A stretch of 64,000 nt of DNA from an uncultured Candidatus Saccharibacteria bacterium. Lineage in GTDB: Bacteria > Patescibacteriota > Minisyncoccia > Phycocordibacterales > Zambryskibacteraceae. The notes under the pieces were generated by a model. It was not told where the DNA came from. It did no database searches and saw only the letters and a program-made list of their open reading frames with translations. Made by a program: the position numbers and the translations under genes. Shown here one piece after another: positions 33,520-51,617 of this stretch; the stretch's first letter is position 1, and every line of letters begins with the position of its first letter. The stretch is from positions 37,659 through 101,658 of the forward strand of contig CAYLHJ010000001.1 of assembly GCA_964383705.1 (NCBI GenBank), written 5' to 3'.

Positions 33520-34155
33520 ATGAATCTAGAAAAAAATAAATTTGAAAAGGAATCAGCTAATTACGGTTTTAGCATTCTGGAAATGCTTGTTAGCGTCGCT
33601 ATTATTAGTCTAATTGGTTTGGCAGTTGCCAACTTTCAGAAAGATATTTTTTCTTTAAATACTCATTTACAAGATAGTCTAAGCGCTCAGCTAGATGCCA
33701 GAAAAGTTCTTCGAAGTTTTATTGCTGAAGTTCGAAGTGCTTCGCCGTCAAGTCTGGGTGGATATGCGATTGAGTCTGCGGGGACATCATCAATTACTTT
33801 CTACAGTAATATAGATAATGATTTATACAAAGAGCGTTTAAGATATTTTTTGCAGGGGAGCGATCTTAAACGTGGAGTGATAAAGCCTGGTGGAAATCCA
33901 CTGGTATACAATCCATCAGATGAGGAATTTGATATTATTGCTCGTGATGTAGTAAACGGTACAAATACTCCGATATTTGATTATTTTGATAAAAATTTTT
34001 ATGGAACGACTACACCACTTACAAGTCCTGTTGATCCGATTCTTGTTAGATTAATTCGCATGACTCTCGTAATTGATCGTGACCCAAATAAAAGTCCGGA
34101 GCCAATCAACGTCTCTTCGCAAGGGACACTTCGTAATTTGAAAGATAATTTATGA
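33520..34155 (+). CDS. Prepilin-type pseudopilin
   Basis: ANYG|FSILEMLVSVAIISLIGLAV. Confidence 0.7.
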   Translation: MNLEKNKFEKESANYGFSILEMLVSVAIISLIGLAVANFQKDIFSLNTHLQDSLSAQLDARKVLRSFIAEVRSASPSSLGGYAIESAGTSSITFYSNIDNDLYKERLRYFLQGSDLKRGVIKPGGNPLVYNPSDEEFDIIARDVVNGTNTPIFDYFDKNFYGTTTPLTSPVDPILVRLIRMTLVIDRDPNKSPEPINVSSQGTLRNLKDNL

Positions 34156-35624
34156 GAATAAAATCTGGTCAAAGTGGGCAAATACTTCTTCAAGTAATTG
34201 TCTTCTCAACAATCGCAGCTCTTCTCATCGGCGGTCTTATTGGTTGGTCTGGTGTAAATATAAAAGCATCCAGACAGTCAGCTGATAGGGAGAGAGCGAT
34301 TCAGCTGGCGGAAGCAGGAATCGATTACTACCGGTGGCATTTGGCACATGCTCCGACTGATTATCAGGATGGAACTGGTGGCCCAGGGCCATACATTCAC
34401 TCTGTTCCTGATAAAAATGGAGACATAATTGGGGAATTTAGTTTAAGTATCACCCCCCCAATTGTTGGTTCAACGAAAGTTCAGGTTGAATCAACGGGTA
34501 TTCCAATAAGTAACCCCGCAATAAGTAGGACGATTAGAGTTGAAATGGCCATTCCTTCTCTGGCCAAATATGCTGTAGTAGCAAATGATAATATGCGTTT
34601 TGGTGCTGGGACAGAAGTTTTTGGTCCAATTCATTCAAATGGGGGGATACGTTTTGATGGTTTAGCACATAATGTTATCACTAGCGCACTTTCTTCATAT
34701 GATGATCCTGATCATACGGGAAATGTTGAATTTGCCGTTCATACTCACGTTAACCCCCCACCAGGTTCAGGTGTTAATGACACTTTTCGCCCGCTCGAAG
34801 CGCCGCCAAGTGCGGTCTCATCTCGTCCGGATATTTTTTTGGTTGGCAGACAATTCCCAGTCCCAGCCGCTGATTTTACAGGATTAACAAATGATCTTTC
34901 GCAAATCAAAGCGAACGCTCAATCGGATGGAAGATATTTTGCATCTTCAGGTGCTCAAGGATATCAAATTCTTCTAAAGACGGATGACACTTTTGATATT
35001 TATAGAGTTGATTCCCAAATTTCAGCTCCATCAAATTGTACAAACGTAGCAAACCAGACTGGATGGGGCACATGGAGCGTAAATGGAAGAACGCTTATTG
35101 GTAATTATCAAATACCGAGCAATGGTTTAATTTTTATTGAAGATAATGTTTGGGTAGAAGGCCAAATAGATGGAGCGCGTGTGACTATTGCGGCAGGGAG
35201 GTTTCCTGACAATCCATCTACAAGGCCAAACATCATAGTAAACAACGATCTTCTTTATACGAACTTTGATGGGAGTGATGTAATAGCTTTAATATCTCAA
35301 GGTCACATACATGTGGGTATGGTTTCGCTCACTAATTTACGTATTGATGCCGCATTGGTTGCTCAAAATGGCAGAGTTGGCAGATTCTACTATCGCCCAC
35401 CGGGAAGTGGTCAAAATAGGTGTTCTCCATACCACACAAGAACAAGCCTTACTTTATATGGAATGATTGCAACCAATGTTCGTTATGGTTTTGCTTATAC
35501 TGATGGCAATGGTTATGGTATAAGGAATATTAACTACGATGCTAACCTTCTTTATGGCCCACCGCCAAGCTTTCCCCTAACATCAGACCAGTACGAAGTC
35601 TTATCTTGGGAAGAGGTTCATTAG
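34152..35624 (+). CDS. PilX/GspK-like minor pilin-associated protein (N-terminal pilin-like helix lacking Glu5)
   Basis: SGQSGQILLQVIVFSTIAALLIGGL hydrophobic N-terminus. Overlaps the upstream gene by 4 nt. Confidence 0.5.
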   Translation: MRIKSGQSGQILLQVIVFSTIAALLIGGLIGWSGVNIKASRQSADRERAIQLAEAGIDYYRWHLAHAPTDYQDGTGGPGPYIHSVPDKNGDIIGEFSLSITPPIVGSTKVQVESTGIPISNPAISRTIRVEMAIPSLAKYAVVANDNMRFGAGTEVFGPIHSNGGIRFDGLAHNVITSALSSYDDPDHTGNVEFAVHTHVNPPPGSGVNDTFRPLEAPPSAVSSRPDIFLVGRQFPVPAADFTGLTNDLSQIKANAQSDGRYFASSGAQGYQILLKTDDTFDIYRVDSQISAPSNCTNVANQTGWGTWSVNGRTLIGNYQIPSNGLIFIEDNVWVEGQIDGARVTIAAGRFPDNPSTRPNIIVNNDLLYTNFDGSDVIALISQGHIHVGMVSLTNLRIDAALVAQNGRVGRFYYRPPGSGQNRCSPYHTRTSLTLYGMIATNVRYGFAYTDGNGYGIRNINYDANLLYGPPPSFPLTSDQYEVLSWEEVH

Positions 35625-35643
35625 TTCGTGATATAATTTTTGG

Positions 35644-36408
35644 ATGGTGAAAAAGTTTGTTATTGCGAATTGGAAGATGAATCCAGAGACTACTGCCGAA
35701 TCAAGGAAATTATTTCAGGATGTGGCAAAGGTTGCGTCAACTCTTAAAAAGATAAATGTCATTATCTCGCCTCCCGCAATATTTCTTTCTGATTTATTAA
35801 GAAAACAGAAAAAAAATGTTTTCCTCTGTTCGCAAGATTTATTTTGGGGTAGAACAGGGCCATTCACTGGACAATTTAGTGCTTCAATGCTTCGAGCATT
35901 AGGTGTTAAATCAAGTATTATTGGCCACTCGGAGAAAAGAGTATTAGGTGAAACTGATGCGATTGTTTCAAAGAAAGTTATTGCCGCTCTCAAAGAATCT
36001 TTAACCCCAATTATTTGTATTGGTGAACGTGAACGAGACCGTGGGGGAGAATATCTAAAATTTCTTGCAGATCAGTTAAAAACATCAATTTCCGGAGTTT
36101 CAAGGAAAGATGTTTCTAAAATTATTATTGCTTACGAACCGATTTGGGCTATTGGCAAGACTGCATCTGATGCGATGAATGCGCACAAACTCCATGAGGT
36201 GGTAATTTTTATTCGCAAGGTCCTAACAACAGTTTTCGGTAGAGAGTTTGCTCAAAAAGTAACTATTATTTATGGTGGATCAGTAGAGCCAAAAAATGCT
36301 TCAGATTTAATAAAAAATGGAAATGTCTCAGGTTTTCTAGTTGGTCATGCAAGCCTCGATTCAAAGAAATTTAAGGAAATATTACTTGCTGTTGAAGCTT
36401 CAAAATGA
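35644..36408 (+). CDS. tpiA: Triosephosphate isomerase
   Basis: FVIANWKMN...IGHSEKR...ICIGE...AYEPIWAIG. Confidence 0.9.
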   Translation: MVKKFVIANWKMNPETTAESRKLFQDVAKVASTLKKINVIISPPAIFLSDLLRKQKKNVFLCSQDLFWGRTGPFTGQFSASMLRALGVKSSIIGHSEKRVLGETDAIVSKKVIAALKESLTPIICIGERERDRGGEYLKFLADQLKTSISGVSRKDVSKIIIAYEPIWAIGKTASDAMNAHKLHEVVIFIRKVLTTVFGREFAQKVTIIYGGSVEPKNASDLIKNGNVSGFLVGHASLDSKKFKEILLAVEASK

Positions 36409-37523
36409 AAAGTGTAAGAGATATAGGGAATATAGAAGGCAAAACCATCTTTCTTCGGGCTGATTTCAATGTACCAGTAAAAGACTCTGTTATTACGGAT
36501 GATTTTCGTATTAAAAAAACACTGCCTCTTATAGATTTTATTCAAAAAAATGGCGGTAGATTGGTTATTGGTAGTCATTTTGAAGGTGAGGGTGGCAGTT
36601 TAAAGCCGGTTTTTGAATATTTAAAGAAAGATTATCAAATTGTTTTTTTAGAGGATTTTTATCCTGAGGGGCTCTCTGTTATAAAAGAGGCTCTTGATAG
36701 TGGAAATATTGTATTACTTGATAATTTAAGAAAGTATAAAGAAGAAAAAGAAAATAGTGATGAGTATGCAAAACATCTTTCAAGTTTTGCCGATTTTTTT
36801 GTAAACGAAGCTTTTTCTTCCGCCCACCGAAGACATGCCTCTGTTATTGGAATACCAAAATATATTCCAGGTTTTTCAGGTTTTGTTTTTGAAGAAGAAA
36901 TTAAGGAACTTTCTCGCGTTTTAAAACCAACTCACCCTTTTTTATTTATTCTTGGTGGCGCAAAGTTTGAAACGAAACTCCCACTTGTAAGAAAAATATT
37001 TAATATTGCCGATTACGTGTTTATTGGAGGCGCTCTCGCAAATGATTTTATAAAAGCTCAAGGCTTAAGTGTTGGTTCATCACTTTTATCATCTGATGGT
37101 GCTGATGTTAGAGATTTTTTAACCCCTAAACTTATTCTACCGTCAGATGTTTTAGTAAGAGACGAATCAGGGGCGATAACAAAAAAGAAAATTACGGATA
37201 TTAACATTACTGATTATATTGTCGATGTTGGTCCAGAAACCATGGAGCGTGTTGATTCGTGTATCCAATCAGTAAAGAGTATTCTTTGGAACGGTCCACT
37301 AGGGAATTATGAACTTGGTTTCAAGGAAGCGACTCTATCTTTGGCAAAGAGTATTGCGGGAAGTGATACTGTGTCTGTTGTTGGAGGGGGAGATACTATT
37401 GCATCAATAGCCGAACTTAATCTTTCAGATAAATTTACTTTTATTTCTACAGGAGGCGGGGCAATGCTAGATTTTCTCGCAAATGAAACTCTGCCTGGTA
37501 TAGAGGCATTAAATCAACATTAA
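36405..37523 (+). CDS. pgk: Phosphoglycerate kinase
   Basis: IFLRADFNVPVKD...VIGSHFEGE...GGGA C-terminal motif. Confidence 0.85.
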   Translation: MKSVRDIGNIEGKTIFLRADFNVPVKDSVITDDFRIKKTLPLIDFIQKNGGRLVIGSHFEGEGGSLKPVFEYLKKDYQIVFLEDFYPEGLSVIKEALDSGNIVLLDNLRKYKEEKENSDEYAKHLSSFADFFVNEAFSSAHRRHASVIGIPKYIPGFSGFVFEEEIKELSRVLKPTHPFLFILGGAKFETKLPLVRKIFNIADYVFIGGALANDFIKAQGLSVGSSLLSSDGADVRDFLTPKLILPSDVLVRDESGAITKKKITDINITDYIVDVGPETMERVDSCIQSVKSILWNGPLGNYELGFKEATLSLAKSIAGSDTVSVVGGGDTIASIAELNLSDKFTFISTGGGAMLDFLANETLPGIEALNQH

Positions 37524-37530
37524 TACAGCT

Positions 37531-37941
37531 CTAATTAATCTCTTTTCTTATTTTATTTCCCGTTGAAGTCATTTCTTCAGGATTTCGTTTCTTGCCAAGC
37601 CAATGCTCGTAGCCGTCTCCTTTATATCTAGGAATAATGTGTGTATGCGTATGAAAAACTATTTGTCCTGCTGCTGGTTCATTATTACTTATGATATTGA
37701 TTCCCTCTGCTTGAACTGCCTTTTTTACTGCAATAGATATTTTTTTTGTTATGACTGCTAGGTTTGAAATAACCTCATCTGGGGTCTCATAAATATTTTC
37801 AAAATGATCTTTGGGTATTACCAGAGTATGACCCAAACTATTTGGTAGAATATTTAAAAAAGCCAAGGTTTTTTCATCCTCATAGACTTTTTCGGTTGGC
37901 ACCTCTCCACGAATAATCTTACAAAATACGCAATCGTCCAT
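37531..37941 (-). CDS. HIT-family nucleotide hydrolase
   Basis: CVFCKII...HTHTHIIPR histidine triad. Confidence 0.85.
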   Translation of the reverse strand: MDDCVFCKIIRGEVPTEKVYEDEKTLAFLNILPNSLGHTLVIPKDHFENIYETPDEVISNLAVITKKISIAVKKAVQAEGINIISNNEPAAGQIVFHTHTHIIPRYKGDGYEHWLGKKRNPEEMTSTGNKIRKEIN

Positions 37942-37961
37942 ACTCTAAGTATAATGGTAGA

Positions 37962-39677
37962 ATGTCCGCTATGAAAGCCTATACGGTACGAGAGTTTAAT
38001 TCCAAAGAATGTAATGACCTTGCTTCATACCCAGAATTGATTCAAATACTTCTTACTTCGCGAGGAATAAAGAATGAAGCTGAGGCGGAGAGATTTTTTG
38101 CTCCCAATTACGAATTAGATCTTCATGACCCATATCTTTTAAAAGATATGGAAAAAGCTGTCGCTCGGATTCTCGAGGCCATTAAAGAAAATCAAAAAAT
38201 CCTTATTTATAGTGATTATGATGCCGATGGTATACCTGGCGGGGTAATGCTCAAAACATTTTTTGATAAGATTGGATATCAAAATGTAGAAAACTACATA
38301 CCGCACCGTCATGATGAAGGGTATGGTCTTCATTTAGATGCTGTAGAAACATTTTTACCGCTTGATGTGAAGCTCATTGTCACTGTTGATTGTGGGATAG
38401 TAGATGTTGATCAAGTTAAGCGCGCCCAAGAGCTTGGTATGGATGTCATCATTACAGATCATCATGAACCAAATGGCGTTTTGCCAAATGCATATGCCGT
38501 TATTAATCCAAAACAATCTGATTGTATTTATCCCGAGAAAGGTCTCTGTGGTTCGGGTGTCGCCTTTAAATTAATTCAAGCTTTGCTTTTAAAAAACCGT
38601 TTTGGTTTGAAAGAGGGTCAAGAGAAATGGTTTCTTGATCTTGTTGGCATAGCCACTCTTTCTGATATGGTGCCGTTGGTTGGGGAAAATCGCGCACTTG
38701 CTCATTATGGACTGAAGGTTATTCGTAGATCGCCTCGTCCGGGATTGGTAAAATTTTGGAAAAAACTTCGAGTTGATCAGAGAAATATTACCGAAGACGA
38801 TATCGGCTTTTCTCTTGCTCCACGCATCAATGCCGCCTCTCGAATGGGTGAACCAATGGATGCCTTTAAGCTTCTTAAGACAGAAGATCATATAGAAGCA
38901 GATCTTTTAAGTGATCACTTAAACAAAATTAATGATGAGAGAAAAGGGGTTGTCGCTTCTTTGGTTAAAGGGATTAAAAAACATCTTCATGAAAAAATTG
39001 TAGACAATTCACTCGGCAAAGTCATAGTTATGGGGAGCCCTGAGTGGAAGCCAGCACTTCTGGGTTTAGTGGCGAATAGCATAATTGATGACTTTAAACG
39101 CCCTGTATTTCTTTGGGGGCGAAATGGTGACTCAATTATAAAGGGCTCATGTCGTTCGGACGGGAGTGTAAACTTGGTCGCTCTTATGGAGGAAGCTAGG
39201 GGTAATTTTTTACAATTTGGTGGACATAAACTTGCTGGAGGATTTGCTGTATCAAATGAAACCATCCACACTCTTGAAGATGAGCTTAATAGGGCATATG
39301 AAAAAGTAAAAGATAATAATGAGAAAGAGGCAATTTGGATAGATAAAAAGATTTCTATTGATGATATTAACTCTAGTCTTTATGAAAAGATAGAAAAGTT
39401 CTCTCCTTTTGGTATTGGTAATCCAAAGCCACTATTTCTTTTTGAGGGAGTTGAAATTTCTGGATCAAAACAATTTGGTAAAGAAAAAAATCACTTAGAG
39501 CTCTCTTTTCTAAAAAATAATGGTGAGAAACTTAAGGCAATTTCTTTTTTCTCAAAACCAGATTCATTCTCAAATATTCCTGAATCAGGTAAAAAAATTA
39601 ACCTTATCGCAACACTTGAAAAATCTACTTTTGGTAAGTATCCAGAACTTCGTCTACGAATTGTTGACATCATTTGA
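37962..39677 (+). CDS. recJ: Single-stranded-DNA-specific exonuclease RecJ
   Basis: DHH motifs (DYDADGI, DHHEP), DHHA1 domain and OB-fold C-terminus. Confidence 0.85.
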   Translation: MSAMKAYTVREFNSKECNDLASYPELIQILLTSRGIKNEAEAERFFAPNYELDLHDPYLLKDMEKAVARILEAIKENQKILIYSDYDADGIPGGVMLKTFFDKIGYQNVENYIPHRHDEGYGLHLDAVETFLPLDVKLIVTVDCGIVDVDQVKRAQELGMDVIITDHHEPNGVLPNAYAVINPKQSDCIYPEKGLCGSGVAFKLIQALLLKNRFGLKEGQEKWFLDLVGIATLSDMVPLVGENRALAHYGLKVIRRSPRPGLVKFWKKLRVDQRNITEDDIGFSLAPRINAASRMGEPMDAFKLLKTEDHIEADLLSDHLNKINDERKGVVASLVKGIKKHLHEKIVDNSLGKVIVMGSPEWKPALLGLVANSIIDDFKRPVFLWGRNGDSIIKGSCRSDGSVNLVALMEEARGNFLQFGGHKLAGGFAVSNETIHTLEDELNRAYEKVKDNNEKEAIWIDKKISIDDINSSLYEKIEKFSPFGIGNPKPLFLFEGVEISGSKQFGKEKNHLELSFLKNNGEKLKAISFFSKPDSFSNIPESGKKINLIATLEKSTFGKYPELRLRIVDII

Positions 39678-39720
39678 TATTCGGAGTATTTTTTGATCAG
39701 ACCACTTCAAGGAGAATAAG

Positions 39721-39954
39721 GTGAATATCTGGATATTGAATTATCGAAAGATCCCACCAGAAACAAGGGTTGGGAAGTTCATCGTTTTTCTAATTCTTTT
39801 TCTCTATCTTCTCTCAGCGCTCTTCATTGCCATTTCGTACTTGAGTGAAGAGTGGTTGTTCGTTCTTTTGTCGATTCTCTTCTTTGCGCTCGGGTATTTT
39901 ACTGATTTGATTGTTTACCCAATCGCATATCTCTGTGAATATAAAGACCCGTGA
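39721..39954 (+). CDS. Small two-TM membrane protein (GTG start)
   Basis: RBS AAGGAG 8 nt upstream of GTG; hydrophobic FIVFLILFLYLLSALFIAISYL. Confidence 0.45.
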   Translation: MNIWILNYRKIPPETRVGKFIVFLILFLYLLSALFIAISYLSEEWLFVLLSILFFALGYFTDLIVYPIAYLCEYKDP

Positions 39955-39984
39955 ACCGAAAGGTTCGCGGGTTTTGTTTTTTGC
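39947..39984 (+). terminator. Intrinsic terminator
   Basis: cccgtgaacc gaaa ggttcgcggg ttttgtttttt. Confidence 0.6.
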
Positions 39985-39996
39985 TATACTTCTAAA

Positions 39997-40716
39997 GTGA
40001 AATCAATTTCTATATTTACTGATGGCGCTTCAAGAGGAAACCCAGGTCCTGGCGGGTGGGGGGCAATCATTGTTCTTACAGAAACTGTAAAAGAGTTGGG
40101 AGGAGGAGAAAAAAGAACAACAAATAACCGAATGGAACTTACGGCGGTTATTGAAGCGCTAGCATTTTTGTCCAAATTAAAAATTAAAGAAAAAGAATTG
40201 GTCGTTAATGTTTTTACTGATTCAAGTTATGTCTTAAAAGGGGCAATGTCCTGGGTATATGGGTGGGAGAGAAATGGGTGGAAGACAAAACAAAAAGACG
40301 AAGTTTTAAATAAAGATCTTTGGGTGAAATTATTGAAACTGATTTCTATTTCTAAAATTAACTGGCAACTTCTTCCAGGGCATTCTGGGATACCAGGAAA
40401 TGAGCGTTGCGACATTATTGCTACCACTTTTGCTGATGGTTTAAAAATACAACTTTATTCTGGAAACAAGAGTGGTTATAAAATTGATGTTTCTTCGGTT
40501 ATTCAAACAAAGGCAAAAAAAAGAAAATCTTCTAAATCAAAAGTAAAACCATATTCATATGTGAGTAGTGTAAATGGGGCGGTAAAAACACATAGAACTT
40601 GGGCAGAATGTGAATCAAGAACAAAAGGGAAAAGTGGTGCGCTCTTTAAAAAATCCTTCTCTAAGGAAGATGAAAAAGCAATAATAGCTTTATGGAAAAG
40701 AGCATCTCATTTTTAA
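39997..40716 (+). CDS. rnhA: Ribonuclease HI with C-terminal hybrid-binding (Cauli_VI-like) domain
   Basis: RNase H fold ISIFTDGASRGNPGPGGWGAII...MELTAVIEAL...VFTDSSYV. C-terminal PYSYVSSVNGAVKTHRTWAECESRTKGKSGALFKKSFSKEDEKA resembles the HBD consensus. Confidence 0.8.
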   Translation: MKSISIFTDGASRGNPGPGGWGAIIVLTETVKELGGGEKRTTNNRMELTAVIEALAFLSKLKIKEKELVVNVFTDSSYVLKGAMSWVYGWERNGWKTKQKDEVLNKDLWVKLLKLISISKINWQLLPGHSGIPGNERCDIIATTFADGLKIQLYSGNKSGYKIDVSSVIQTKAKKRKSSKSKVKPYSYVSSVNGAVKTHRTWAECESRTKGKSGALFKKSFSKEDEKAIIALWKRASHF

Positions 40717-42194
40717 ATCGTAATCGTATCCCTTTTTTAATTTCAGGTTTTATTTTTGGTGTTTTAATCTCTTCATTTATTAGTATTGGGCAGAGGGTTG
40801 GCTACGGGTTATTTTTTGTCCATCTTTTTATCTTAGTTTTCTTGTTTTTTGCAAGAAATGTTTCTGTTAATCAACCGATTGCTGTTGTTTTATTGTTTCT
40901 CATGACCTTTTCTATGGGGATTATTCGTTTTGCAAAATATAATGAGGTGAATCTCGATCCAATTTTCGAATCTGCTGTTGGTAAAGAAATCACCCTTCAG
41001 TCTATTGTCTTAAAAGAACCAGAAGAAAAAGTTTCTTACAGACAATACATTGTTAAGGCACCAAAAGGCGATGCCAAGGTTCTTGTTAGGGGGGAAATTT
41101 ATCCAGTATTTAATTACGGAGATGAAGTTAAATTTACAGGAAGATTAGAAAAACCAAAAAACTTCGAAACTGATCAAGGAAAAGATTTTGATTACACTTC
41201 TTATTTAAAGAAAGACAAAGTTTATTACATTATTTCCTTTGCTAAAGGGGAGCTTGTTTCAGAAGGTAGTGGTAATTGGTTTAGAGAAAAACTTTTTACT
41301 CTAAAAAATAATTTTGTTAAGAATATAAATAATTTAATACCAGACCCTGAATCTTCTTTACTTGCGGGTATTTTACTTGGGTTAGAAGACTCTCTTGGGA
41401 ATGATTTAGAGGATGCTTTTATAAAAACTGGTGTAGTGCATATTGTTGTTTTGTCTGGTTACAACATTACTATCGTTGCTGAATCGCTTATAAAGTTTTT
41501 TTCTTTTGTTCCTAAGAATTTTGCTTTGGCAGGTGGTGCTTTTGGTATTATTTTATTTTCCCTAATGGTTGGCGGGTCTCCATCTGTAGTGCGCGCATCA
41601 CTTATGGCGATTCTTGTTCTTTTGGCGCGTGGTACAGGGCGAAAATATGATATTGGTCGAGCTTTGCTTATTGTTGGATTTGTAATGATTTTTTTGAATC
41701 CAAATATTCTTATCTTTGATATATCATTTCAACTCTCGTTTCTTTCTACCATCGCGCTTATTTGGATTTCTCCCATTATTAAAAATAAATTTAAAATAAT
41801 TCCAGAGCGTTTTGCTATTAGAGAAATTTTTTCTGCTACACTTGCCACTCAGTTTTTCGTCTTGCCACTACTTCTTTATAAGATGGGAGAATTTTCTTTA
41901 GTCGGACTTCCGGTAAATTTACTCATTCTTGGTTTTATCCCCGCGATTATGTTTTTTGGTTTTGTCGCGGGGTCAATAGGATTTGTTTCTTTATTAATCG
42001 CTACACCTTTTGCATTTCTCTCATACTTACTACTTGCTTATATATTAAAAATCGTTGATATTTTTTCAGCATTTTCTTTTGCTTCATTTCATATACCACA
42101 TTTTTCTCTTTCACTTATGATTGTATTTTATCTTTCTTATGGGTATTTATTTTTTAGATATTTTAAAAATAGAAAAGGCGCGTTACAAGAGTAA
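40692..42194 (+). CDS. comEC: ComEC/Rec2 competence channel, N-terminal (DUF4131 plus competence domain) part
   Basis: Polytopic membrane protein with GGSPSVVRASLMAILVLLARGTGRKYD competence-domain signature. Confidence 0.8.
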   Translation: MEKSISFLNRNRIPFLISGFIFGVLISSFISIGQRVGYGLFFVHLFILVFLFFARNVSVNQPIAVVLLFLMTFSMGIIRFAKYNEVNLDPIFESAVGKEITLQSIVLKEPEEKVSYRQYIVKAPKGDAKVLVRGEIYPVFNYGDEVKFTGRLEKPKNFETDQGKDFDYTSYLKKDKVYYIISFAKGELVSEGSGNWFREKLFTLKNNFVKNINNLIPDPESSLLAGILLGLEDSLGNDLEDAFIKTGVVHIVVLSGYNITIVAESLIKFFSFVPKNFALAGGAFGIILFSLMVGGSPSVVRASLMAILVLLARGTGRKYDIGRALLIVGFVMIFLNPNILIFDISFQLSFLSTIALIWISPIIKNKFKIIPERFAIREIFSATLATQFFVLPLLLYKMGEFSLVGLPVNLLILGFIPAIMFFGFVAGSIGFVSLLIATPFAFLSYLLLAYILKIVDIFSAFSFASFHIPHFSLSLMIVFYLSYGYLFFRYFKNRKGALQE

Positions 42195-42207
42195 CGCGCC
42201 TTGTCAT
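42177..42207. terminator. Hairpin at the comEC 3' end / junction with the higher-GC block
   Basis: aggcgcgttac aagag taacgcgcct inverted repeat. Confidence 0.4.
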
Positions 42208-42211
42208 GATT

Positions 42212-42499
42212 CTACGAGCTGCCAGATGGGCCGTAGGGGAATCCGTCTTCGTGACGGAGCCTTTGCCTCCCTGTGACATGGCCACAGTCCAAACAACACT
42301 CTTGAAAACTGGCGGCCCCCTCCTCCGCCAGAATGTTTCTCTTATGGTCGGGGTAGCGACGCTTCTTTCCTCTGCTCCCGCACTGGGGGCACTGAGGGAA
42401 AAAGTACTCAATGATCAGGATAAAGGCCGTCACATTGATCATAATCGCCACCATAAGTAGGGACAATTCCCATTCCTCAAGACTGGCTAGCCAATTCAT
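42212..42499 (-). CDS. Small TM plus zinc-ribbon protein (higher GC)
   Basis: N-terminal TM (LLMVAIMINVTAFILII), then CPQC...CLDC. The overlapping plus-strand ORF 42206..42460 is judged less likely. Confidence 0.4.
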   Translation of the reverse strand: MNWLASLEEWELSLLMVAIMINVTAFILIIEYFFPQCPQCGSRGKKRRYPDHKRNILAEEGAASFQECCLDCGHVTGRQRLRHEDGFPYGPSGSS

Positions 42500-42542
42500 A
42501 AATCCCTCCGTTCAAGGTTTTGTTTGGTTGGGTGGCGATAAC

Positions 42543-43226
42543 CTAGATGAGCCCCTTGTATAAGAAGAACAGTCGAGTCAGAAATTCATATGGATATGCG
42601 GTGATTGCCCATCGCCAACGCTTCTGACTGAACTTGTGTTCGAATTTCATCTTCGGGAGATCTGGTGGAATGATAACCTCGAGGCCAAGGCGCTCATAAA
42701 TCCACCGAGCTCGCCATGCGTGTGGGTAAGTGGCAATTAGAATTACTCTTGACCAACCCATCTCATCGCACAACTCCTTTTGAAGTCTGGCCACGCCATC
42801 ACTGCCACTATATTTACTAGAGAAGATACTTGTGTTGCTATCGAACGGGGTATTTCCCAGAATGTGGATGCCTCGTTGCTTGATGATTCTTCCAACCTCG
42901 GCTTGAGGAAAGATGGGGATACCAAGCATTTTGTGATAATGCTGGGCGCAATCAGCAAGCCCCATGTTTGATTTACTGGGCAACCCACCTTCCAAATCAG
43001 ACGCGGCTTGAGTAACAATTAGCTGGGCGTCTTGTAGACGTCCTTCTCCGGGCGGTTTTCTCCAATTGAAGATACATTGGAATAGGCGGAAAAGAGTTGA
43101 ACTGGGCTCCTTGCGGAGTCTAGCCAAGAAACCGAACATCGATCTCTCCTCGATAGGAATTCTGCGTACCTTACAACGGGCAATATTTCCAGAAGTTATA
43201 TAATCATAACTACAGCCACATGTCAA
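42543..43226 (-). CDS. DUF218 (YdcF/ElyC-like) domain protein, higher GC
   Basis: GWSRVILIATYPHAWRARWIYERLGLEVI resembles the DUF218 core. GC about 50%. Confidence 0.5.
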   Translation of the reverse strand: MTCGCSYDYITSGNIARCKVRRIPIEERSMFGFLARLRKEPSSTLFRLFQCIFNWRKPPGEGRLQDAQLIVTQAASDLEGGLPSKSNMGLADCAQHYHKMLGIPIFPQAEVGRIIKQRGIHILGNTPFDSNTSIFSSKYSGSDGVARLQKELCDEMGWSRVILIATYPHAWRARWIYERLGLEVIIPPDLPKMKFEHKFSQKRWRWAITAYPYEFLTRLFFLYKGLI

Positions 43227-43250
43227 ATGTAGATTAGAAGAAGTTTTTGT

Positions 43251-43844
43251 TTATAGTGCTTTTTTAAAATTTTCTTCAATTACATTCCAATTAAGGTTTG
43301 CAAAAAAATCTTCAATGTAATTTTTCTTTCCGCTTGGTTGGTAATCTGCTACGAATGCATGCTCCCACATATCAATACCTAATACCCATGGAAGGCCGGT
43401 TAAATGTCCTAAGTGCTGTTCGTCTACCCATTGAGTGAGTAATCTTTTTGTAAGAGGGTCATAGTAAAGGACTGCCCATCCTACTCCGCGAGTAAGGGCG
43501 ATGGCCTTAAAAATGTTTAAAAATCCATCAAAGGAACTCCATTCTTCCTCAATCGCCTTTTTTAGAAGTGAATCACTACTTATTAAAGATGCGCCACCTT
43601 CTAAACTTTTGAAATAGTATTCGTGGTTTCGCATACCATCAAATTCGAATGCAAATCTTCTTTGAAGTTCTCCTAAAGCATAGGCATTTTTCTCACTATC
43701 TTTTCTGTATTCTTCAATTGTTTCAAGAATAGTATTCGCGTTCTTTACATAGCCCGAATAAAGCTTTAAATGTTCCTCAATATTCTTTGTCGTTATTCCC
43801 TTAAGTTCTGGGATAGTAAATTTTTGTTCTTCAAATTTTTTCAT
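43251..43844 (-). CDS. sodA: Fe/Mn superoxide dismutase
   Basis: HHxKHH-type N-terminus, DMWEHAF and QWVDEQH motifs. Host-like low GC. Confidence 0.85.
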   Translation of the reverse strand: MKKFEEQKFTIPELKGITTKNIEEHLKLYSGYVKNANTILETIEEYRKDSEKNAYALGELQRRFAFEFDGMRNHEYYFKSLEGGASLISSDSLLKKAIEEEWSSFDGFLNIFKAIALTRGVGWAVLYYDPLTKRLLTQWVDEQHLGHLTGLPWVLGIDMWEHAFVADYQPSGKKNYIEDFFANLNWNVIEENFKKAL

Positions 43845-43933
43845 ACTTATTATTGTATCATTTTACCCTTTTTCATTTCCGTGCTAGAAATTAGTATAGT
43901 CACTGCTCATTCTTACTATCTTCTGGAGGCAAT

Positions 43934-44389
43934 ATGCCTGGCGTAATGAATTCCAAGCCACATATTCAAGATCTTATTGGCCAAGATCTCTCTGGCTTCA
44001 AGCTTGCAATTGGGTTCACCGCTCGTCTCAAACGAGGCCATGTGGGGTACTTCCCGCTAGTTTACAATAGGTTAAGAAGAACTGTGCGACAGGACATTTC
44101 CTCTTACCAGGACATCGTAGTCACCTTAGAGAAATCAACAATAGCCAAAGTGGCTAATCTTCTTGAATATCGACCCCATGAGATCGAGAGGGTGGTTGTC
44201 TTGGTCAACGAATCTCAAGAACTTGGGTTCTTTATTGAGGGTGTAAACATTTCAACCGTCATTCGATACTCAGACGCCTTACCTGCTTGTATTTCCGGAC
44301 AGCTCTTTCATCTTCTTACTGAAGATCGGTTAACTGTCCTGGCCCGACAAAGTGAAGAACCTTTCAAGTGGGCATACGGTCTTCTGTAA
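43934..44389 (+). CDS. Hypothetical protein, higher GC
   Basis: GGAGG RBS 5 nt upstream of the ATG. About 50% GC, no recognisable domain. Confidence 0.45.
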   Translation: MPGVMNSKPHIQDLIGQDLSGFKLAIGFTARLKRGHVGYFPLVYNRLRRTVRQDISSYQDIVVTLEKSTIAKVANLLEYRPHEIERVVVLVNESQELGFFIEGVNISTVIRYSDALPACISGQLFHLLTEDRLTVLARQSEEPFKWAYGLL

Positions 44390-44396
44390 AAGATGC

Positions 44397-44430
44397 TCTG
44401 CCGCGCGCCACATGGCGCGCGGCTTCTTTT
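44397..44430 (+). terminator. Intrinsic terminator (near-perfect GC palindrome)
   Basis: ctgccgcgcgcca catg gcgcgcggcttctttt. Confidence 0.55.
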
Positions 44431-44443
44431 ATATAATAAATAT

Positions 44444-45301
44444 ATGGATTATTTGCGGAAAAACCGGAAAGAGTTTATTGTCGGCACGCTTTTTATTTTT
44501 AATCTTTTAATCTGGCTTCGAGTCTATTCTATTCAACCTAGGGATTATGTTTCCGTATCTTTTTTTGATGTCGGTCAGGGTGATGGGGCCCTTATAGAGT
44601 CTACAAATCGCAATCGGATTTTAATTGACGGAGGTAAAGACAAATTTGTTTTGCGAGAAATTTCAAAAGCTCTGCCATTTTTTGATAGACACATTGATGT
44701 GGTCATAGAATCTCATCCCGATAAAGATCATATTGGTGGCTTGCCAGAAGTTGTGAGCCGTTTGAGTGTCGGAGCATTTATGGAACCGGGGGTGGAATCA
44801 GAGAATAGTGTGGATGATGAACTGAGGAAAAGAGTTTTAGGAAAAAATATTCCAATTTTTCTTGCTCGCGCGGGGCAGATTATAGATATGGGAGATGGTT
44901 CGTATTTTAAGATACTTTTTCCTGATAGAGATGTCTCTGGTGTAGATACCAACGATGCTTCAATAGTCCTTCAATACATTTATGGTGACACCTGTTTTCT
45001 TTTTACTGGAGACTCTCCGGTAAAAATTGAAGAATATCTAATTGGTGTTTATAAAGAGGAATTAAATTGCGAAGTTTTAAAGGTGGGGCATCATGGCTCA
45101 CGCACTTCAACAAGCGAAGAATATTTATATTTTGTAAAACCAAAGTTTGCTGTCATTTCAGCCGGCAAAGAAAATTCATACGGACATCCGCATCAAGAGG
45201 TCTTGGATAACTTAAATAAGTTTAAAGTAAAAATTTTAAGCACGATTGAGGATGGGACTATTAAATTTATTTCAAACGGTTTAGAGATAAGAAAAAAGTA
45301 A
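44444..45301 (+). CDS. ComEC C-terminal-type metallo-beta-lactamase domain protein with N-terminal TM
   Basis: DVGQGDGALIE...HPDKDHIGG...LKVGHHGSRTS MBL motifs. Start at 44444 preferred; the upstream ATG at 44393 lies inside the terminator hairpin. Own TATAAT element upstream. Confidence 0.75.
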   Translation: MDYLRKNRKEFIVGTLFIFNLLIWLRVYSIQPRDYVSVSFFDVGQGDGALIESTNRNRILIDGGKDKFVLREISKALPFFDRHIDVVIESHPDKDHIGGLPEVVSRLSVGAFMEPGVESENSVDDELRKRVLGKNIPIFLARAGQIIDMGDGSYFKILFPDRDVSGVDTNDASIVLQYIYGDTCFLFTGDSPVKIEEYLIGVYKEELNCEVLKVGHHGSRTSTSEEYLYFVKPKFAVISAGKENSYGHPHQEVLDNLNKFKVKILSTIEDGTIKFISNGLEIRKK

Positions 45302-45302
45302 A

Positions 45303-45345
45303 ACCGCTACCTATATGCTAGCAGGGTAGCGGTCTACCGCCTCAA
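45303..45345. terminator. Bidirectional terminator hairpin
   Basis: ccgctacc tatatgctagca gggtagcgg. Confidence 0.4.
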
Positions 45346-45631
45346 CCACCTTTTCCTTGATTTGGTTGAGATCGAAGTTGGGTAGAGCTCTGACGTGGAT
45401 GAATCCGTACTTGAATGTGACGAACTCAATGCCCTCTATCCTCAAGATGTCGGAGAGAAGCGCGCGCGCTTCGCACCAAGATCTCATGGATGAAAGAACC
45501 CCATTTACATATTCTGGGCTGTTTACGATAGGAGAGATCGTAAGGCGACAGCACATGTAAAAGTGGGGCTTGAACACCATCTCTCTCGGATGTATTTCCG
45601 AGGCCGGTTCGGGACAAACCCCGATAGTCAT
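45311..45631 (-). CDS. Hypothetical protein, higher GC
   Basis: AAGGAG RBS upstream of the ATG; 106 aa; about 50% GC. Confidence 0.45.
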   Translation of the reverse strand: MTIGVCPEPASEIHPREMVFKPHFYMCCRLTISPIVNSPEYVNGVLSSMRSWCEARALLSDILRIEGIEFVTFKYGFIHVRALPNFDLNQIKEKVVEAVDRYPASI

Positions 45632-45692
45632 GACTTCTCCTTGAAAGAGCGACTTTGACTATTCTATCAAAGAAGAATATAAAGACCTGTGA

Positions 45693-46121
45693 TTAGCTTT
45701 TCTCCTCAATACTTTTATAACCAAGTAAAGCAAGCACTAATATATATACGATGTGGTCATCAAGAAGGGGGTTATTTTCAGGTGGGAAAACCGCCAAATA
45801 CATGAGCAAAAGCATTAATGAGCCAGCTATAGCGCCCCACTTAACATATCTATTAAATACGAGTGTAACGCCGACAAATAGAAGACCTAACATAAATATC
45901 CAGTCTACAGCCTCAATTCCTGCAAGGCTTTTAAAAAATGGAGCAAAGGGTCCCTTTGTAGCAAATGATAGAAAGCCATATGTTGGCGATCCGCCGTTAA
46001 TCCAAGCTTTTTCAGCTGTTGTTGCAAAACCTAAACCAATTAATTTATCAAAAAAAGCCCAAAGGAAAATCAAACCCATTACTATACGCAATTTTATGTA
46101 TAACAATTTTTGTATTTTCAT
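45693..46121 (-). CDS. DoxX-family membrane protein
   Basis: Four hydrophobic helices; VMGLIFLWAFFDKL...GSLMLLLMYLAVFP. Confidence 0.65.
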   Translation of the reverse strand: MKIQKLLYIKLRIVMGLIFLWAFFDKLIGLGFATTAEKAWINGGSPTYGFLSFATKGPFAPFFKSLAGIEAVDWIFMLGLLFVGVTLVFNRYVKWGAIAGSLMLLLMYLAVFPPENNPLLDDHIVYILVLALLGYKSIEEKS

Positions 46122-46186
46122 ATAAATGAAATTATAGCACTTTCATTTTTGTGGATATTTTGCACATGTTATTAACTTTCAGACAA

Positions 46187-46225
46187 ACAAAACGGCCGAC
46201 AATTTATGTCGGCCGTTTTGTTTAT
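46187..46225. terminator. Bidirectional terminator
   Basis: aaacggccgaca atttat gtcggccgtttt. Confidence 0.55.
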
Positions 46226-46235
46226 TAATAAAAAT

Positions 46236-48312: not shown

Positions 48313-50466
48313 ATGGAAAGAGATTATCCGCTAGAGAGAGTTAGAAATTTTGGAATTATTGCTCACATTGATGCTGGGAAAACTACTACTTCTGAGCGAG
48401 TACTTTATTACACTGGTTCTCAGCATAAAATTGGAGAAGTTCATGAGGGAGAAACCACCACTGACTGGATGGAGCAAGAGCGCGAGCGCGGCATTACTAT
48501 CACAGCAGCAGCTGTTACTTGTTTTTGGAGTCAGACATATCTACCAGTAGAAGAAAGAAAGAAAAAAGAGAATAAATATCGTTTTAATATTATTGACACT
48601 CCGGGTCATATTGATTTTACTGTTGAAGTAAAGCGCTCTCTTCGTGTTCTTGACGGTGCTGTTGTCGTTTTTGATGGTGTTGCCGGTGTTGAACCACAAT
48701 CTGAGACGAACTGGCGTTATGCAGAAGATGCTAATGTGCCAAGAATCTGTTTTATAAACAAACTTGATAGAACAGGAGCCTCTTTTGAACGGTCTTATAA
48801 ATCTATTCTTGATCGACTTTCAAAAAAAGCAGTCCGTATGCAAATTCCTGTCGGCGAAGAGGGAAATCACGAGGGAGTGGTTGATCTTTTGAAGATGAAA
48901 ATGTATGCCTTTGAAGGAGAAATGGGTAATCAGGTTGTTGAAAAGGAAATTCCAGAAAATTTAAAAGCAGATGCAGAAAAATATCGCCATGATTTGATTG
49001 AGCGCATTGTTGAAAACGATGAGTCTCTTATGAACGACTATCTTGAAGGGAAAGAAATCCCACTTGAAACTTTAAAGAAGGTTCTTCGCAAAGCAGTTAT
49101 CGAAAATAAAGTATTTCCAGTTTTCACTGGTTCGGCTTTGAAAAATAAGGGGGTTCAGCTTGTTCTTGATTCTGTTGTCGATTATCTCCCATCACCGCTC
49201 GATATTCCTCCAGTAAAAGGTATTGATCCTCGCAATGGTGAAGAGGTTACTCGTCACGCATCAGACACAGAACCTTTTTCTGCTTTGGCATTTAAACTTC
49301 AAGCCGATCCGTTTGTAGGCCAACTTACATTCTTCCGCGTATACTCTGGAACGGTTGAATCGGGAACATATCTATACAACTCAACGACAGGGGAGAAAGA
49401 AAGACTCGGACGAATAGTGCGCTTGCAAGCAAATCAAAGAGAAGAAGTAAAAAAAGTTTTTGCTGGAGAAATTGCCGCTGCGGTAGGTCTTAAAAATGCA
49501 AAAACTTCTCATACATTTTCTGATGAGAATAGCCCAATCATTCTAGACCAGATTAAATTCCCAGAGCCGGTTATCTCACTTCGTATTGAACCCAAAACAA
49601 AAGCTGACCAAGAAAAAATGGGTATTGCGCTCAAGCGTCTTTCAGATGAAGACCCAACATTTAGAATTAAAAGTGATGCTGATACGGGAGAAACTGTCAT
49701 TATGGGTATGGGCGAACTTCACTTGGAAATCATTGTTGATAGGATGAAACGCGAATTTAGCGTGGAAGCAAATGTCGGCAAACCTCAGGTTGCATACAAA
49801 GAAACTATTACAGGAACTGCAGAAGTGGAAAATAAATATATCAAGCAATCAGGAGGAAAAGGCCAGTATGGTCATGTGAAAATAAATATCAAACCACTTC
49901 CTCAGTATGATCCAGAAGAAAAAGTTCCAAAGAATGCTACTCGAGAGCCAGGATTTGAATTCATTGATTCAATTAAGGGTGGAGTTATTCCTCAAGAGTT
50001 TATTCCTGCGGTTGAAAAAGGAATTCGTGAGGGAATGGAGCGTGGTGTCGTAGCCGGATTTAAGATGACGGATATTTCAGTCGAATTAACTTATGGTTCT
50101 TATCACGATGTGGACTCATCTGAAATTGCATACAAAATTGCGGCATCGCAAGCATTTCAAGAAGCTGCTCGTAAAGCAAAGCCGGTTATTCTAGAGCCGA
50201 TTATGAAAGTGGAAGTTGTTGTCCCAGAGAAATTTATGGGCGATATTACTGGAAACCTCTCTTCAAAGCGTGGCCAAGTGGAAGGTATGGAAGATAGAGG
50301 AGAGCTTAAGGTTATCAAAGCCAAAGTTCCTCTTTCAGAAATGTTTGGTTATGTTACGAACCTACGGTCTATGACAGAGGGAAGAGGAAGCTCAACGATG
50401 GAGTTTGACCACTATGCTATAGTGCCTCAAAATGTCGCTACTTCTATCATCGAAGCAAGACAGTAA
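48313..50466 (+). CDS. fusA: Elongation factor G
   Basis: RNFGIIAHIDAGKTTTSERVLYYTG G-domain and the full five-domain length. Confidence 0.95.
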   Translation: MERDYPLERVRNFGIIAHIDAGKTTTSERVLYYTGSQHKIGEVHEGETTTDWMEQERERGITITAAAVTCFWSQTYLPVEERKKKENKYRFNIIDTPGHIDFTVEVKRSLRVLDGAVVVFDGVAGVEPQSETNWRYAEDANVPRICFINKLDRTGASFERSYKSILDRLSKKAVRMQIPVGEEGNHEGVVDLLKMKMYAFEGEMGNQVVEKEIPENLKADAEKYRHDLIERIVENDESLMNDYLEGKEIPLETLKKVLRKAVIENKVFPVFTGSALKNKGVQLVLDSVVDYLPSPLDIPPVKGIDPRNGEEVTRHASDTEPFSALAFKLQADPFVGQLTFFRVYSGTVESGTYLYNSTTGEKERLGRIVRLQANQREEVKKVFAGEIAAAVGLKNAKTSHTFSDENSPIILDQIKFPEPVISLRIEPKTKADQEKMGIALKRLSDEDPTFRIKSDADTGETVIMGMGELHLEIIVDRMKREFSVEANVGKPQVAYKETITGTAEVENKYIKQSGGKGQYGHVKINIKPLPQYDPEEKVPKNATREPGFEFIDSIKGGVIPQEFIPAVEKGIREGMERGVVAGFKMTDISVELTYGSYHDVDSSEIAYKIAASQAFQEAARKAKPVILEPIMKVEVVVPEKFMGDITGNLSSKRGQVEGMEDRGELKVIKAKVPLSEMFGYVTNLRSMTEGRGSSTMEFDHYAIVPQNVATSIIEARQ

Positions 50467-50601: not shown

Positions 50602-50985
50602 ATGAATCGTCAATGGATTCGTGCATTATCCGTACTTTTTGTGCTTCTCCTATGCTACTTGTTTCTTAACTGGGCAGTCGGAGGAAAGTGTTCGGAGTTT
50701 CAGAGAGGGCCATCATCCCAAATTGAAGCCGATTCTTTCGGAACTTGGGGTGAGGACCTCGGGGTGATGAGGGGGCAATTCTTTTTGTTGAATGACAGCA
50801 CCCTTGCCATGGTGCTGGAAGAAGTGGTGGCAAAGGGGCAACCATATAAGATCGAAGGTATCCTTTGCGTTGAGTGTCCGCGTCAGGACCTAGGGTTAAT
50901 CCTTATGGGTGATATCGCCAAGTTCATTTACCCAGGGGACAGTGACTACAATCATTACGCCGCTAAGTTTCTCCTGCAGAAATAG
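50602..50985 (+). CDS. Cassette paralog A: small signal-anchored protein with CxxC and conserved C-terminal tail DSDYNHYAAKFLLQK (higher GC)
   Basis: N-terminal RALSVLFVLLLCYLFLNWAVG TM, 127 aa, GGAG RBS. C-terminal tail shared with the two downstream ORFs. Confidence 0.6.
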   Translation: MNRQWIRALSVLFVLLLCYLFLNWAVGGKCSEFQRGPSSQIEADSFGTWGEDLGVMRGQFFLLNDSTLAMVLEEVVAKGQPYKIEGILCVECPRQDLGLILMGDIAKFIYPGDSDYNHYAAKFLLQK

Positions 50986-50988
50986 CTT

Positions 50989-51026
50989 CCCCACGAAAAC
51001 CTCACGGTGTTTCGTGGGGTTTTTGT
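50989..51026 (+). terminator. Cassette terminator copy 1
   Basis: ccccacgaaaac ctcacggt gtttcgtgggg ttttt; near-identical to copy 2. Confidence 0.6.
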
Positions 51027-51080
51027 TTGATGTATTTTAATTTATGGCGAGTTCCAAAGGTCAGGATACTTTACGATTAT

Positions 51081-51109
51081 TTGACAAAGCTATAGTTAAT
51101 TGTCATAAT
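51081..51109 (+). promoter_or_regulatory. Cassette B promoter TTGACA-17-CATAAT
   Basis: Consensus -35 with 17-nt spacing. Confidence 0.4.
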
Positions 51110-51157
51110 GCTGATCAGAGTGGCAAAACCACACACAGACCTTTTCAGGGGAGAATA

Positions 51158-51508
51158 ATGCCCAGTCCTTCTCGCAGGTTTCCCAGACTCCTGGATTATT
51201 TTGTCATGGGGGCTCTTTTGATTGCGCTGCTGGCTGCGGTAATTTTCGGACGGGGCCCCGAAAAGAGACATATTCCGGTGAAGACGGTGGTGGATAAGCT
51301 TCAGCTTCTCGGGGGTGGAGAGATCATCAATACCGGTGAACGGCTCTATTTCACCACGCAGGATGGCCAGAGCATGGTTGCCTGCATCAAATGTGAGGAG
51401 ATCTCAGTCTACTGGCTTAAGTCTCCACGCTTCGAGACGATCGAAGTTGTTAACCCCTTCGACTCAAGCTACGAGCACTACGCAGCCAAGTTTCTCCTGC
51501 AGAGATAA
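51158..51508 (+). CDS. Cassette paralog B: small signal-anchored protein with CxxC and C-terminal tail DSSYEHYAAKFLLQR (higher GC)
   Basis: Start MPSPSRRFPRLLDYFVMGALLIALLAAVIF after GGGGAG RBS (the provided ORF 51044.. is a 5' in-frame extension). 116 aa. Confidence 0.6.
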   Translation: MPSPSRRFPRLLDYFVMGALLIALLAAVIFGRGPEKRHIPVKTVVDKLQLLGGGEIINTGERLYFTTQDGQSMVACIKCEEISVYWLKSPRFETIEVVNPFDSSYEHYAAKFLLQR

Positions 51509-51511
51509 CTT

Positions 51512-51548
51512 CCCCACGAAAACCCCACAGTGTTTCGTGGGGTTTTTG
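51512..51548 (+). terminator. Cassette terminator copy 2
   Basis: ccccacgaaaac cccacagt gtttcgtgggg ttttt. Confidence 0.6.
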
Positions 51549-51549
51549 T

Positions 51550-51577
51550 TTGACATTTTTATTTTTGATGATATAGT
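51550..51577 (+). promoter_or_regulatory. Cassette C promoter TTGACA-16-TATAGT
   Basis: The -35 overlaps the terminator tail exactly as in cassette B. Confidence 0.35.
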
Positions 51578-51617
51578 TTATTTGGATTCGGAACAATCAC
51601 ATTCTCGGAGAATAACA

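Follow-up and report, generated by a model that had tools for sequence, protein, structure and literature searches.

In the window analysed here, a stretch of 64,000 nucleotides (nt) from an uncultured Candidatus Saccharibacteria bacterium (GTDB family Zambryskibacteraceae; GenBank assembly GCA_964383705.1, contig CAYLHJ010000001.1, forward-strand positions 37,659 to 101,658), the DNA-uptake protein ComEC is encoded by two separate genes, comEC-N for the membrane channel and comEC-C for the metallo-beta-lactamase (MBL) nuclease domain. This two-gene ComEC is an old arrangement and the norm for the clade, and the inserted block that now lies between the halves was not the cause of the split. 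Taken together, the data make it probable that ComEC in Paceibacteria (Parcubacteria, within CPR/Patescibacteria), to which the genome of the window belongs, underwent an old fission that has been inherited vertically, that foreign genes were added later, and that the two products act together. A first-pass annotation of the window, made from the sequence alone, had described two comEC genes about 2.25 kb apart with a mosaic block between them, a description with which the map of open reading frames (ORFs) and the Pfam and NCBIfam scans agree, and had offered two readings of it: that the split of ComEC is native, or that inserted DNA interrupted an ancestral gene. It is the first of these that has been borne out. 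The two genes, in window coordinates, are the following:

40692-42194, plus strand: comEC-N, 500 amino acids (aa), with N-terminal transmembrane (TM) helices, an OB fold (DUF4131) and the Competence channel, and no MBL domain
44444-45301, plus strand: comEC-C, the gene for a stand-alone ComEC-type MBL nuclease of 285 aa, with a basic N-terminus, one TM helix and the MBL domain

Between the stop codon of comEC-N and the ATG of the MBL gene there are 2,249 bp, occupied by three minus-strand genes and one plus-strand gene.

The two genes jointly encode every ComEC domain. In the comEC-N product, Pfam recognises DUF4131 (PF13567, residues 40-188, E = 1.6e-13) and Competence (PF03772, residues 228-488, E = 1.2e-43). 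Against the NCBIfam model TIGR00361, which has 663 positions, this product covers positions 77-365 (84 bits) and the MBL product positions 412-663 (131.8 bits), neither half alone attaining the trusted cut-off of this equivalog (190 bits). The comEC-N product aligns to residues 42-498 of the full-length ComEC chain 9vc6_A, and its residues 138-455 align to 141-461 of 30bt_A (801 aa), the 45 residues left over taking it to about position 506. The MBL product matches the ComEC chain 9ic4_A at 1.6e-29, and its residues 12-279, TM helix included, align to 513-788 of 30bt_A (2.4e-29), which places its residue 1 at about 502. The first-pass annotation had raised the question of whether the halves abut; judged by these alignments to solved full-length ComEC they do, without loss or duplication. 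The MBL product has a single hydrophobic segment (residues 10-30) after a basic stretch, and this segment aligns to the TM helix in front of the MBL domain of the full-length protein. Alignment thus puts the fission point in the loop before the last TM helix of the single-chain protein.

The longest ORF of the MBL gene starts at 44393, and this start, chosen by gene callers, would give a protein of 302 aa. It has been rejected, taking into account that the extra 17 codons correspond to the terminator hairpin of the preceding gene (p151, described below) and that relatives have 280-297 aa; the ATG at 44444 gives 285 aa. The motifs DVGQGD, HPDKDH, TGD and HHGS are all found in the window protein, and HPDKDH corresponds to the HxDxDH variant that has been reported for ComEC as H598-x-D600-x-D602-H603 (PMC12455585). 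Five residues (D93, D95, H96, H216 and H217) are invariant in 51 stand-alone MBL sequences, and from these motifs the nuclease looks active.

The age of the split has been addressed with a synteny survey, in which one genome per species was taken and searched with the window proteins, giving 80 loci (L007-L086). The named loci belong to Zambryski-, Nomura-, Taylor-, Kaiser-, Campbell-, Lloyd- and Wolfebacteria, the best-matching named ones being Zambryskibacteria, and the others are labelled Paceibacterota; 72 of the 80 are informative, the contig ending too soon in the remaining eight. The 120 best ComEC-N homologues have 463-539 aa and contain DUF4131 and Competence only, with Lactamase_B in none of them, and a separate MBL gene lies downstream of comEC-N on the same strand in 64 of the 72 informative species loci. 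The arrangements found were:

comEC-N, then a superoxide dismutase (SOD) gene on the minus strand, then the MBL gene: 40 of 80 loci; median gap 722 bp, i.e., the SOD gene alone
comEC-N and the MBL gene adjacent: 15 of 80 loci; gap -24 to +135 bp
other spacer content: 9 of 80 loci
MBL gene upstream of comEC-N (rearranged): 2 of 80 loci
MBL gene missing from the sequence downstream, which was covered for at least 3 kb and as far as the fetched locus extends (3.3-10 kb): 6 of 80 loci

Adjacent pairs are not fused genes in disguise: 14 of the 15 are in different frames or separated by a stop codon, often overlapping by 3-25 nt, and in the fifteenth (L078), for which the frame check is unreliable, there is an in-frame stop upstream of the MBL start. 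With that proviso for L078, no fusion of comEC-N and MBL in one reading frame occurs among the 72 informative loci. The order conserved in relatives is recJ, rnhA, comEC-N (plus strand), SOD (minus), MBL (plus), L28 (minus), M50 peptidase and S12. The closest long contigs, L092 (58% identity in ComEC-N) and L093/94 (55%), carry the compact series of comEC-N, SOD and MBL, with an MBL product of 285-287 aa, and lack the GC-rich ORFs that are found at this locus in the window. Thus, the fission predates the inserts, and the block did not break the gene.

These data bear directly on the second reading of the first-pass annotation, according to which a single comEC was recently cut in this lineage by the 2.25-kb mosaic block. 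Such a cut would agree with the foreign composition and lineage specificity of the GC-rich ORFs between the halves, and with the exact abutment of the halves against full-length ComEC. It is nevertheless very improbable, since two genes are already present in every relative examined, including the closest long contigs without the GC-rich ORFs, since the SOD gene is an ancestral, host-like spacer whose position is conserved in 40 loci, and since flanking direct repeats were not found. The old two-gene arrangement is therefore the one adopted here. It had been anticipated that, were the locus ordinary, relatives would uniformly have two genes and no compositional shift would be seen; the relatives are uniformly two-gene, but the shift in this lineage is real.

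The SOD gene, the usual occupant of the spacer, deserves separate comment. Its product has both Pfam domains, Sod_Fe_C (8.8e-21, 74.3 bits against a cut-off of 20.9) and Sod_Fe_N (28.0 bits against 27), and its best solved match is the Fe-SOD of Aquifex, 1COJ (5.7e-27), with H25, H74, D158 and H162 aligned at the metal-ligand positions of the family (three His and one Asp). The first-pass annotation had recognised this gene and its host-like composition, which these domains and a GC content at third codon positions (GC3) of 0.28 confirm. It had also considered an SOD unusual in a genome resembling those of the Candidate Phyla Radiation (CPR), a view that does not hold, given that the gene separates the halves, in antisense orientation, at 40 of the 80 species loci and that SOD has been found in 66-83% of groundwater Patescibacteria metagenome-assembled genomes (PMC8672522). 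Against the SOD of the window, the SODs of relatives show 42% to 78% identity, and two groups, one lower and one higher, can be distinguished by eye.

The remaining features of the locus, between and immediately beyond the two halves, are the following, where zn95, p198, p151 and p106 are our labels for the four GC-rich genes:

42175-42202: GC-rich, terminator-like hairpin between the convergent comEC-N and zn95, overlapping the comEC-N stop codon
42212-42499, minus strand: zn95, 95 aa, containing a single TM-like helix and a motif resembling a zinc ribbon, CPQC...CLDC; GC 0.535, GC3 0.65
42543-43139, minus strand: p198, a divergent DUF218/YdcF-like protein of 198 aa; GC 0.47, GC3 0.48
43251-43844, minus strand: Fe/Mn SOD, with both Pfam SOD domains; GC3 0.28
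43934-44389, plus strand: p151, a lineage-specific protein of 151 aa; GC 0.45, GC3 0.43
44400-44423, plus strand: hairpin after p151, resembling an intrinsic terminator, with 10 G-C pairs and then TTCTTTT
44432-44437, plus strand: TATAAT box separated by 6 nt from the MBL ATG; a Shine-Dalgarno motif is lacking here, and the box is a candidate promoter of a leaderless transcript
45311-45631, minus strand: p106, 106 aa, beyond the MBL gene and outside the 40692-45301 block; GC 0.50, GC3 0.62

The signals proposed in the first-pass annotation are present. The GC hairpin at the end of comEC-N lies at 42175-42202, its minus strand showing 12 pairs and then a T-run in a terminator scan; p151 has its GGAGG ribosome-binding site (43925-43929, 5 nt upstream of the gene) and its palindromic terminator (44400-44423); and the MBL gene has a TATAAT element and a TM helix of its own. 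An inverted repeat at 45303-45333 overlaps the stop codon of p106. The ORF at 42543-43226 (p227) is the mechanical extent of p198, and the 198-aa form is the one chosen by gene callers and shared by all homologues.

The composition of the window sets these four genes apart. Window GC is 38.5% and the median GC3 of 69 ORFs is 0.30, with a median absolute deviation of 0.028; zn95 (0.65), p227/p198 (0.48), p151 (0.43) and p106 (0.62) are outliers, as opposed to the host-like values of comEC-N (0.23), SOD (0.28) and the MBL gene (0.31). Abrupt GC steps occur at 42.15, 43.2, 43.9 and 45.3 kb. The shift is far beyond chance, and the contrast drawn earlier between higher-GC ORFs and a host-GC SOD is upheld. 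No copy of zn95, p198 or p151 occurs in the 80 species loci, and relatives of zn95 and p106 were each found in a single place: that of zn95 (70% aa identity over residues 25-92) in L087, a contig of the Logan assembly of SRR33452760 that is 94% identical in nucleotides to window 31125-40717, and that of p106 (37% identity) in L064. Neither protein has a family at threshold, in Pfam or NCBIfam in the case of p106. The proposal that zn95 is a zinc-ribbon membrane protein finds backing in its hydrophobic helix and its CPQC...CLDC motif, though not in any family assignment.

More can be said about p198. Its family comprises 15 homologues of 179-199 aa, with 51-86% identity and invariant residues. 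The first-pass annotation had named it a DUF218 protein, and this stands only at the level of the fold: its DUF218 (PF02698) score is 12.1 bits against a gathering threshold of 27.6, weak DUF218 matches appear in 9 of the 16 family members (best E = 0.012), and the confidently predicted structure corresponds to a YdcF-type alpha/beta fold. A Foldseek search against the PDB gave nothing significant, and E. coli YdcF (PDB 3CA8) shares a mere 15% identity with p198, which scores below the Pfam DUF218 threshold. The ratio of nonsynonymous to synonymous substitution (dN/dS) is 0.14, compared with 0.04-0.09 for core genes, and so p198 is a maintained gene under purifying selection. Its homologues lie on contigs of 49-50% GC, in one of which the gene ends a glycosyltransferase/methyltransferase cluster. 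A phage origin of p198 was also considered and rejected, a scan of viral contigs with the family alignment having found nothing. As regards p151, no Pfam, PDB-sequence or fold match was obtained and no close homologue was found; it has 16 distant relatives of similar length with shared motifs. Homologues of p198 and p151 reside on contigs of about 48-50% GC (about 50% in L088 and L096), where their composition is native.

On this evidence, zn95, p198, p151 and p106 appear as lineage-specific foreign additions at intergenic junctions, the likely donors being organisms of about 50% GC. The inserted-DNA idea of the first-pass annotation is therefore retained in part: genes absent from the 80 loci would have entered the spacers later, and they did not cause the split. 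As zn95 and p198 are shared with L087, in which they lie at the same place with 83% identity, their acquisition would predate the divergence of the two lineages, and the additions comprise zn95 together with the DUF218-like gene, p151 and, outside the block, p106. It could be argued instead that the GC-rich ORFs are native, whether fast-evolving or newly born, or that they are chance open frames in non-coding structured DNA. None has a family at threshold, p151 is without a close homologue, and higher GC brings fewer stop codons and longer chance ORFs. Such an origin is highly unlikely for several reasons: the p198 family is conserved at 198 aa, with invariant residues, a confident fold and the low dN/dS given above; p151 has distant relatives with conserved motifs, and its own ribosome-binding site and terminator; and homologues exist on contigs whose GC matches theirs. 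Structured RNA in the islands has likewise been rejected, as the Rfam gathering scan of the whole window returned four tRNAs only, none of them a match in the islands.

The same abrupt GC steps might suggest a chimeric assembly, in which DNA of a higher-GC organism was joined to a CPR contig. This has been excluded by three per-run Logan assemblies, found by exact-protein look-ups and 100% identical to the window: contigs of SRR12822863 cover 38835-42750 and 42808-46226, one of SRR12816583 corresponds to 42000-45300 and spans both junctions, and one of SRR12822862 covers 42918-44742. Moreover, L087 has zn95 and p198 at the same place, and the GC-rich pieces are complete genes, each having its own signals, and lie among host genes whose order is conserved. 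The probability left to a chimera is next to negligible.

With an old fission and later foreign additions as the preferred account, the question is how the separated halves would work. It has been proposed here that the first gene supplies an OB-fold DNA-binding domain and a membrane channel, and the second a ComEC-type, Mn-dependent MBL nuclease domain carried on its own signal-anchor helix, with the N-terminus inside and the C-terminus outside. In the membrane, the two proteins would come together without a covalent link to form an equivalent of single-chain ComEC, in which the nuclease, on the outer face, would degrade the strand that is not transported and the OB fold and channel would import the other. 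An antisense SOD gene fills the spacer in roughly half of the species surveyed, and the foreign genes of this lineage would have been added later.

The inheritance of the two genes is consistent with this proposal. Pairwise distances of ComEC-N and MBL correlate with r = 0.90, each correlating with RecJ at about 0.92, as would be expected if comEC-N and the MBL gene have been co-inherited vertically, which these distances indicate. As to transcription, which appears to be independent for the two genes, a Shine-Dalgarno-like motif precedes the MBL gene in 2 of 50 relatives, and a strict match to TA[A/T/C]AAT ends within 16 nt of its ATG in 10 of 50; several relatives resemble the window in having a -10-like box that ends 5-8 nt before the ATG, and several more have looser boxes by eye. 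This suggests leaderless transcripts for the MBL gene. In some relatives SOD is divergent, with its start codon some 17 nt upstream, a candidate case of leaderless divergent transcription.

Several results weigh against the preferred account, in one or another of its parts. Six species loci have no MBL gene in at least 3 kb downstream of comEC-N. Each half has transcription signals of its own, and most relatives have an antisense gene in between. Once RecJ is controlled for, ComEC-N and MBL distances show a partial correlation of only 0.34, and the raw correlation is not above that of either gene with RecJ. In 17 of the 51 stand-alone MBLs (L007-L086), Asn replaces the first His of HxDxDH (TNPDxDH), the other motif residues being invariant; these variants are, by eye and not from a tabulation, mostly in loci labelled Nomurabacteria. 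SOD distances correlate with those of ComEC-N, MBL and RecJ at only r 0.36-0.47 in the 23 loci from which all four genes were recovered, so that the SOD may have kept its position while its sequence was perhaps exchanged or replaced in place. With respect to the foreign additions, the direct repeats envisaged as insertion scars at 42.2 and 44.4 kb did not appear, a search of 41900-45800 giving only short chance matches, and no ORF of the block has a mobility domain in Pfam or NCBIfam.

The sister contig L087 is a further such result. Its alignment to the window jumps from 40717 to 42149, so that window 40718-42148 is missing, and at the junction the two flanking alignments overlap by 9 nt. Retained in L087 are rnhA, the last 45 nt or so of comEC-N (the final 15 codons and the stop), the hairpin, zn95, p198 and the SOD gene, at which the contig ends, before the position of the MBL gene. 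Because comEC-N occupies this site across the class, the state of L087 is a loss, by a clean deletion of nearly all of comEC-N. The linkage and co-dependence of the halves are thus not absolute. Over window 34152-43844, synonymous divergence (dS) between the window and L087 rises steadily towards the comEC locus, from 0.12 for p490 through 0.15 (TIM), 0.25 (PGK) and 0.47 (recJ) to 0.67 for SOD, and a recombination tract around the locus could be responsible.

The above points lead to an alternative in which the stand-alone MBL is an independent membrane-anchored extracellular nuclease, used for instance in nucleotide scavenging, and its position is a historical remnant. The separate transcription signals, the antisense gene, the loci without a nearby MBL gene, the loss of comEC-N from an otherwise kept neighbourhood in L087 and the modest co-evolution signal would all fit, as would the inability of CPR bacteria to synthesise nucleotides and the expectation that they scavenge DNA (PMC6744442). 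We consider it unlikely, as 64 of the 72 informative species, which span a deep class, have kept the same-strand downstream linkage, and the 15 adjacent pairs often show start/stop overlaps such as those of translationally coupled pairs. In addition, the protein has kept a TM helix whose homologue in full-length ComEC tethers the domain to the channel, and a solved-structure study has found that the OB fold of the same chain enhances nuclease activity (PMC12455585). Joint action of the two halves is thus maintained as the preferred interpretation.

Compared with single-chain ComEC/Rec2, as known in Bacillus subtilis and in Moorella/Neomoorella (30bt, 9vc6, 9ic4), the system has the same three domains in the same order and with the same boundaries, but on two polypeptides, with separate transcription signals and, in this window, with 2.25 kb and four unrelated genes between them. 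Pimentel and Zhang (2018; PMC6299819) scored ComEC domain profiles per protein and inferred repeated gains and losses of Lactamase_B; in their terms, the comEC-N product is a DC-profile ComEC (DUF4131 and Competence, with no C-terminal MBL). Meheust et al. (2019; PMC6744442) reported the ComEC-MBL fusion to be essentially absent from CPR. In contrast to these scorings, in which the MBL domain counts as absent, it is present here as a syntenic stand-alone gene in 64 of the 72 informative species. No description of a separately encoded syntenic ComEC-type MBL gene was found in the searchable literature, the coverage of which is incomplete, and priority is not claimed. Taking into account that surveys count about half of all ComEC proteins as being without the nuclease domain (PMC8579336, PMC6744442), and that in Paceibacteria this domain is encoded by the neighbouring gene, per-protein domain counts under-estimate the number of complete ComEC systems.

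A nuclease encoded apart from ComEC has a precedent in Streptococcus pneumoniae, where the membrane-bound EndA degrades the non-transforming strand at the outer face (as cited in PMC8579336). The MBL product would resemble EndA in having a gene distinct from that of ComEC and in being tethered to the membrane on its outer face. EndA, however, has no relation to the MBL fold and is an endonuclease that cuts DNA and RNA non-specifically, whereas in the present case the separate nuclease is ComEC's own C-terminal domain, released by gene fission. It is possible, although we hold it with some doubt, that the ComEC of Paceibacteria, and perhaps that of CPR as a whole, is a modular machine with two subunits, formed by a channel and a membrane-anchored nuclease subunit encoded in trans. 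Silale et al. (PMC8579336) regarded it as an open question how the non-transforming strand is handled when ComEC has no C-terminal domain, a question to which such a machine would be one concrete answer. It would also imply that the channel (as at the comEC locus of L087) or the nuclease can be lost separately, with shifts between transformation and extracellular DNA degradation, and that the spacer between the halves is a tolerated landing site for acquired genes.

The window by itself is mostly ordinary, the split being the norm of the clade, the SOD expected and the assembly sound. It is the clade-wide two-gene architecture that is worth recording as a ComEC variant, and it offers a natural split-ComEC system for studying the cooperation of nuclease and channel. 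The GC-rich inserts, for their part, show on a small scale, but cleanly, foreign genes that have been fixed and kept in the streamlined genome of a CPR bacterium with a DNA-uptake apparatus. In this regard, pilB, pilC, a pilin-like gene, comM and recJ are all present in the window, the first-pass annotation having listed all of these except the pilin-like gene.

Beyond p106 and before the L28 gene there is a further minus-strand gene (45693-46121), of host composition, which encodes a multi-pass membrane protein of 142 aa with no Pfam or NCBIfam match. The content of the spacer between the MBL and L28 genes differs among relatives, comprising ClpP and NADAR in L092, and a 133-aa ORF and DUF2914 in L093.

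Two other GC-rich regions occur in the window. The first (50602-52007) lies between the genes of EF-G (48313-50466) and EF-Tu (52225-53415) and contains three ORFs of 127, 154 and 230 aa, with a GC3 of 0.52-0.54 in the two that were measured and no Pfam match. They share the C-terminal motif (D/S)Y(N/E)HYAAKFLLQ(K/R), and from their sequences they look like paralogous small proteins inserted in the str operon. The second is a single minus-strand gene (24780-26081; GC 0.505, GC3 0.52) for a protein of 433 aa without a Pfam match at threshold, in which a signal- or lipoprotein-like N-terminus and a poly-proline linker are found together with a metzincin-like zinc-protease motif, HELIHGLGFGH.

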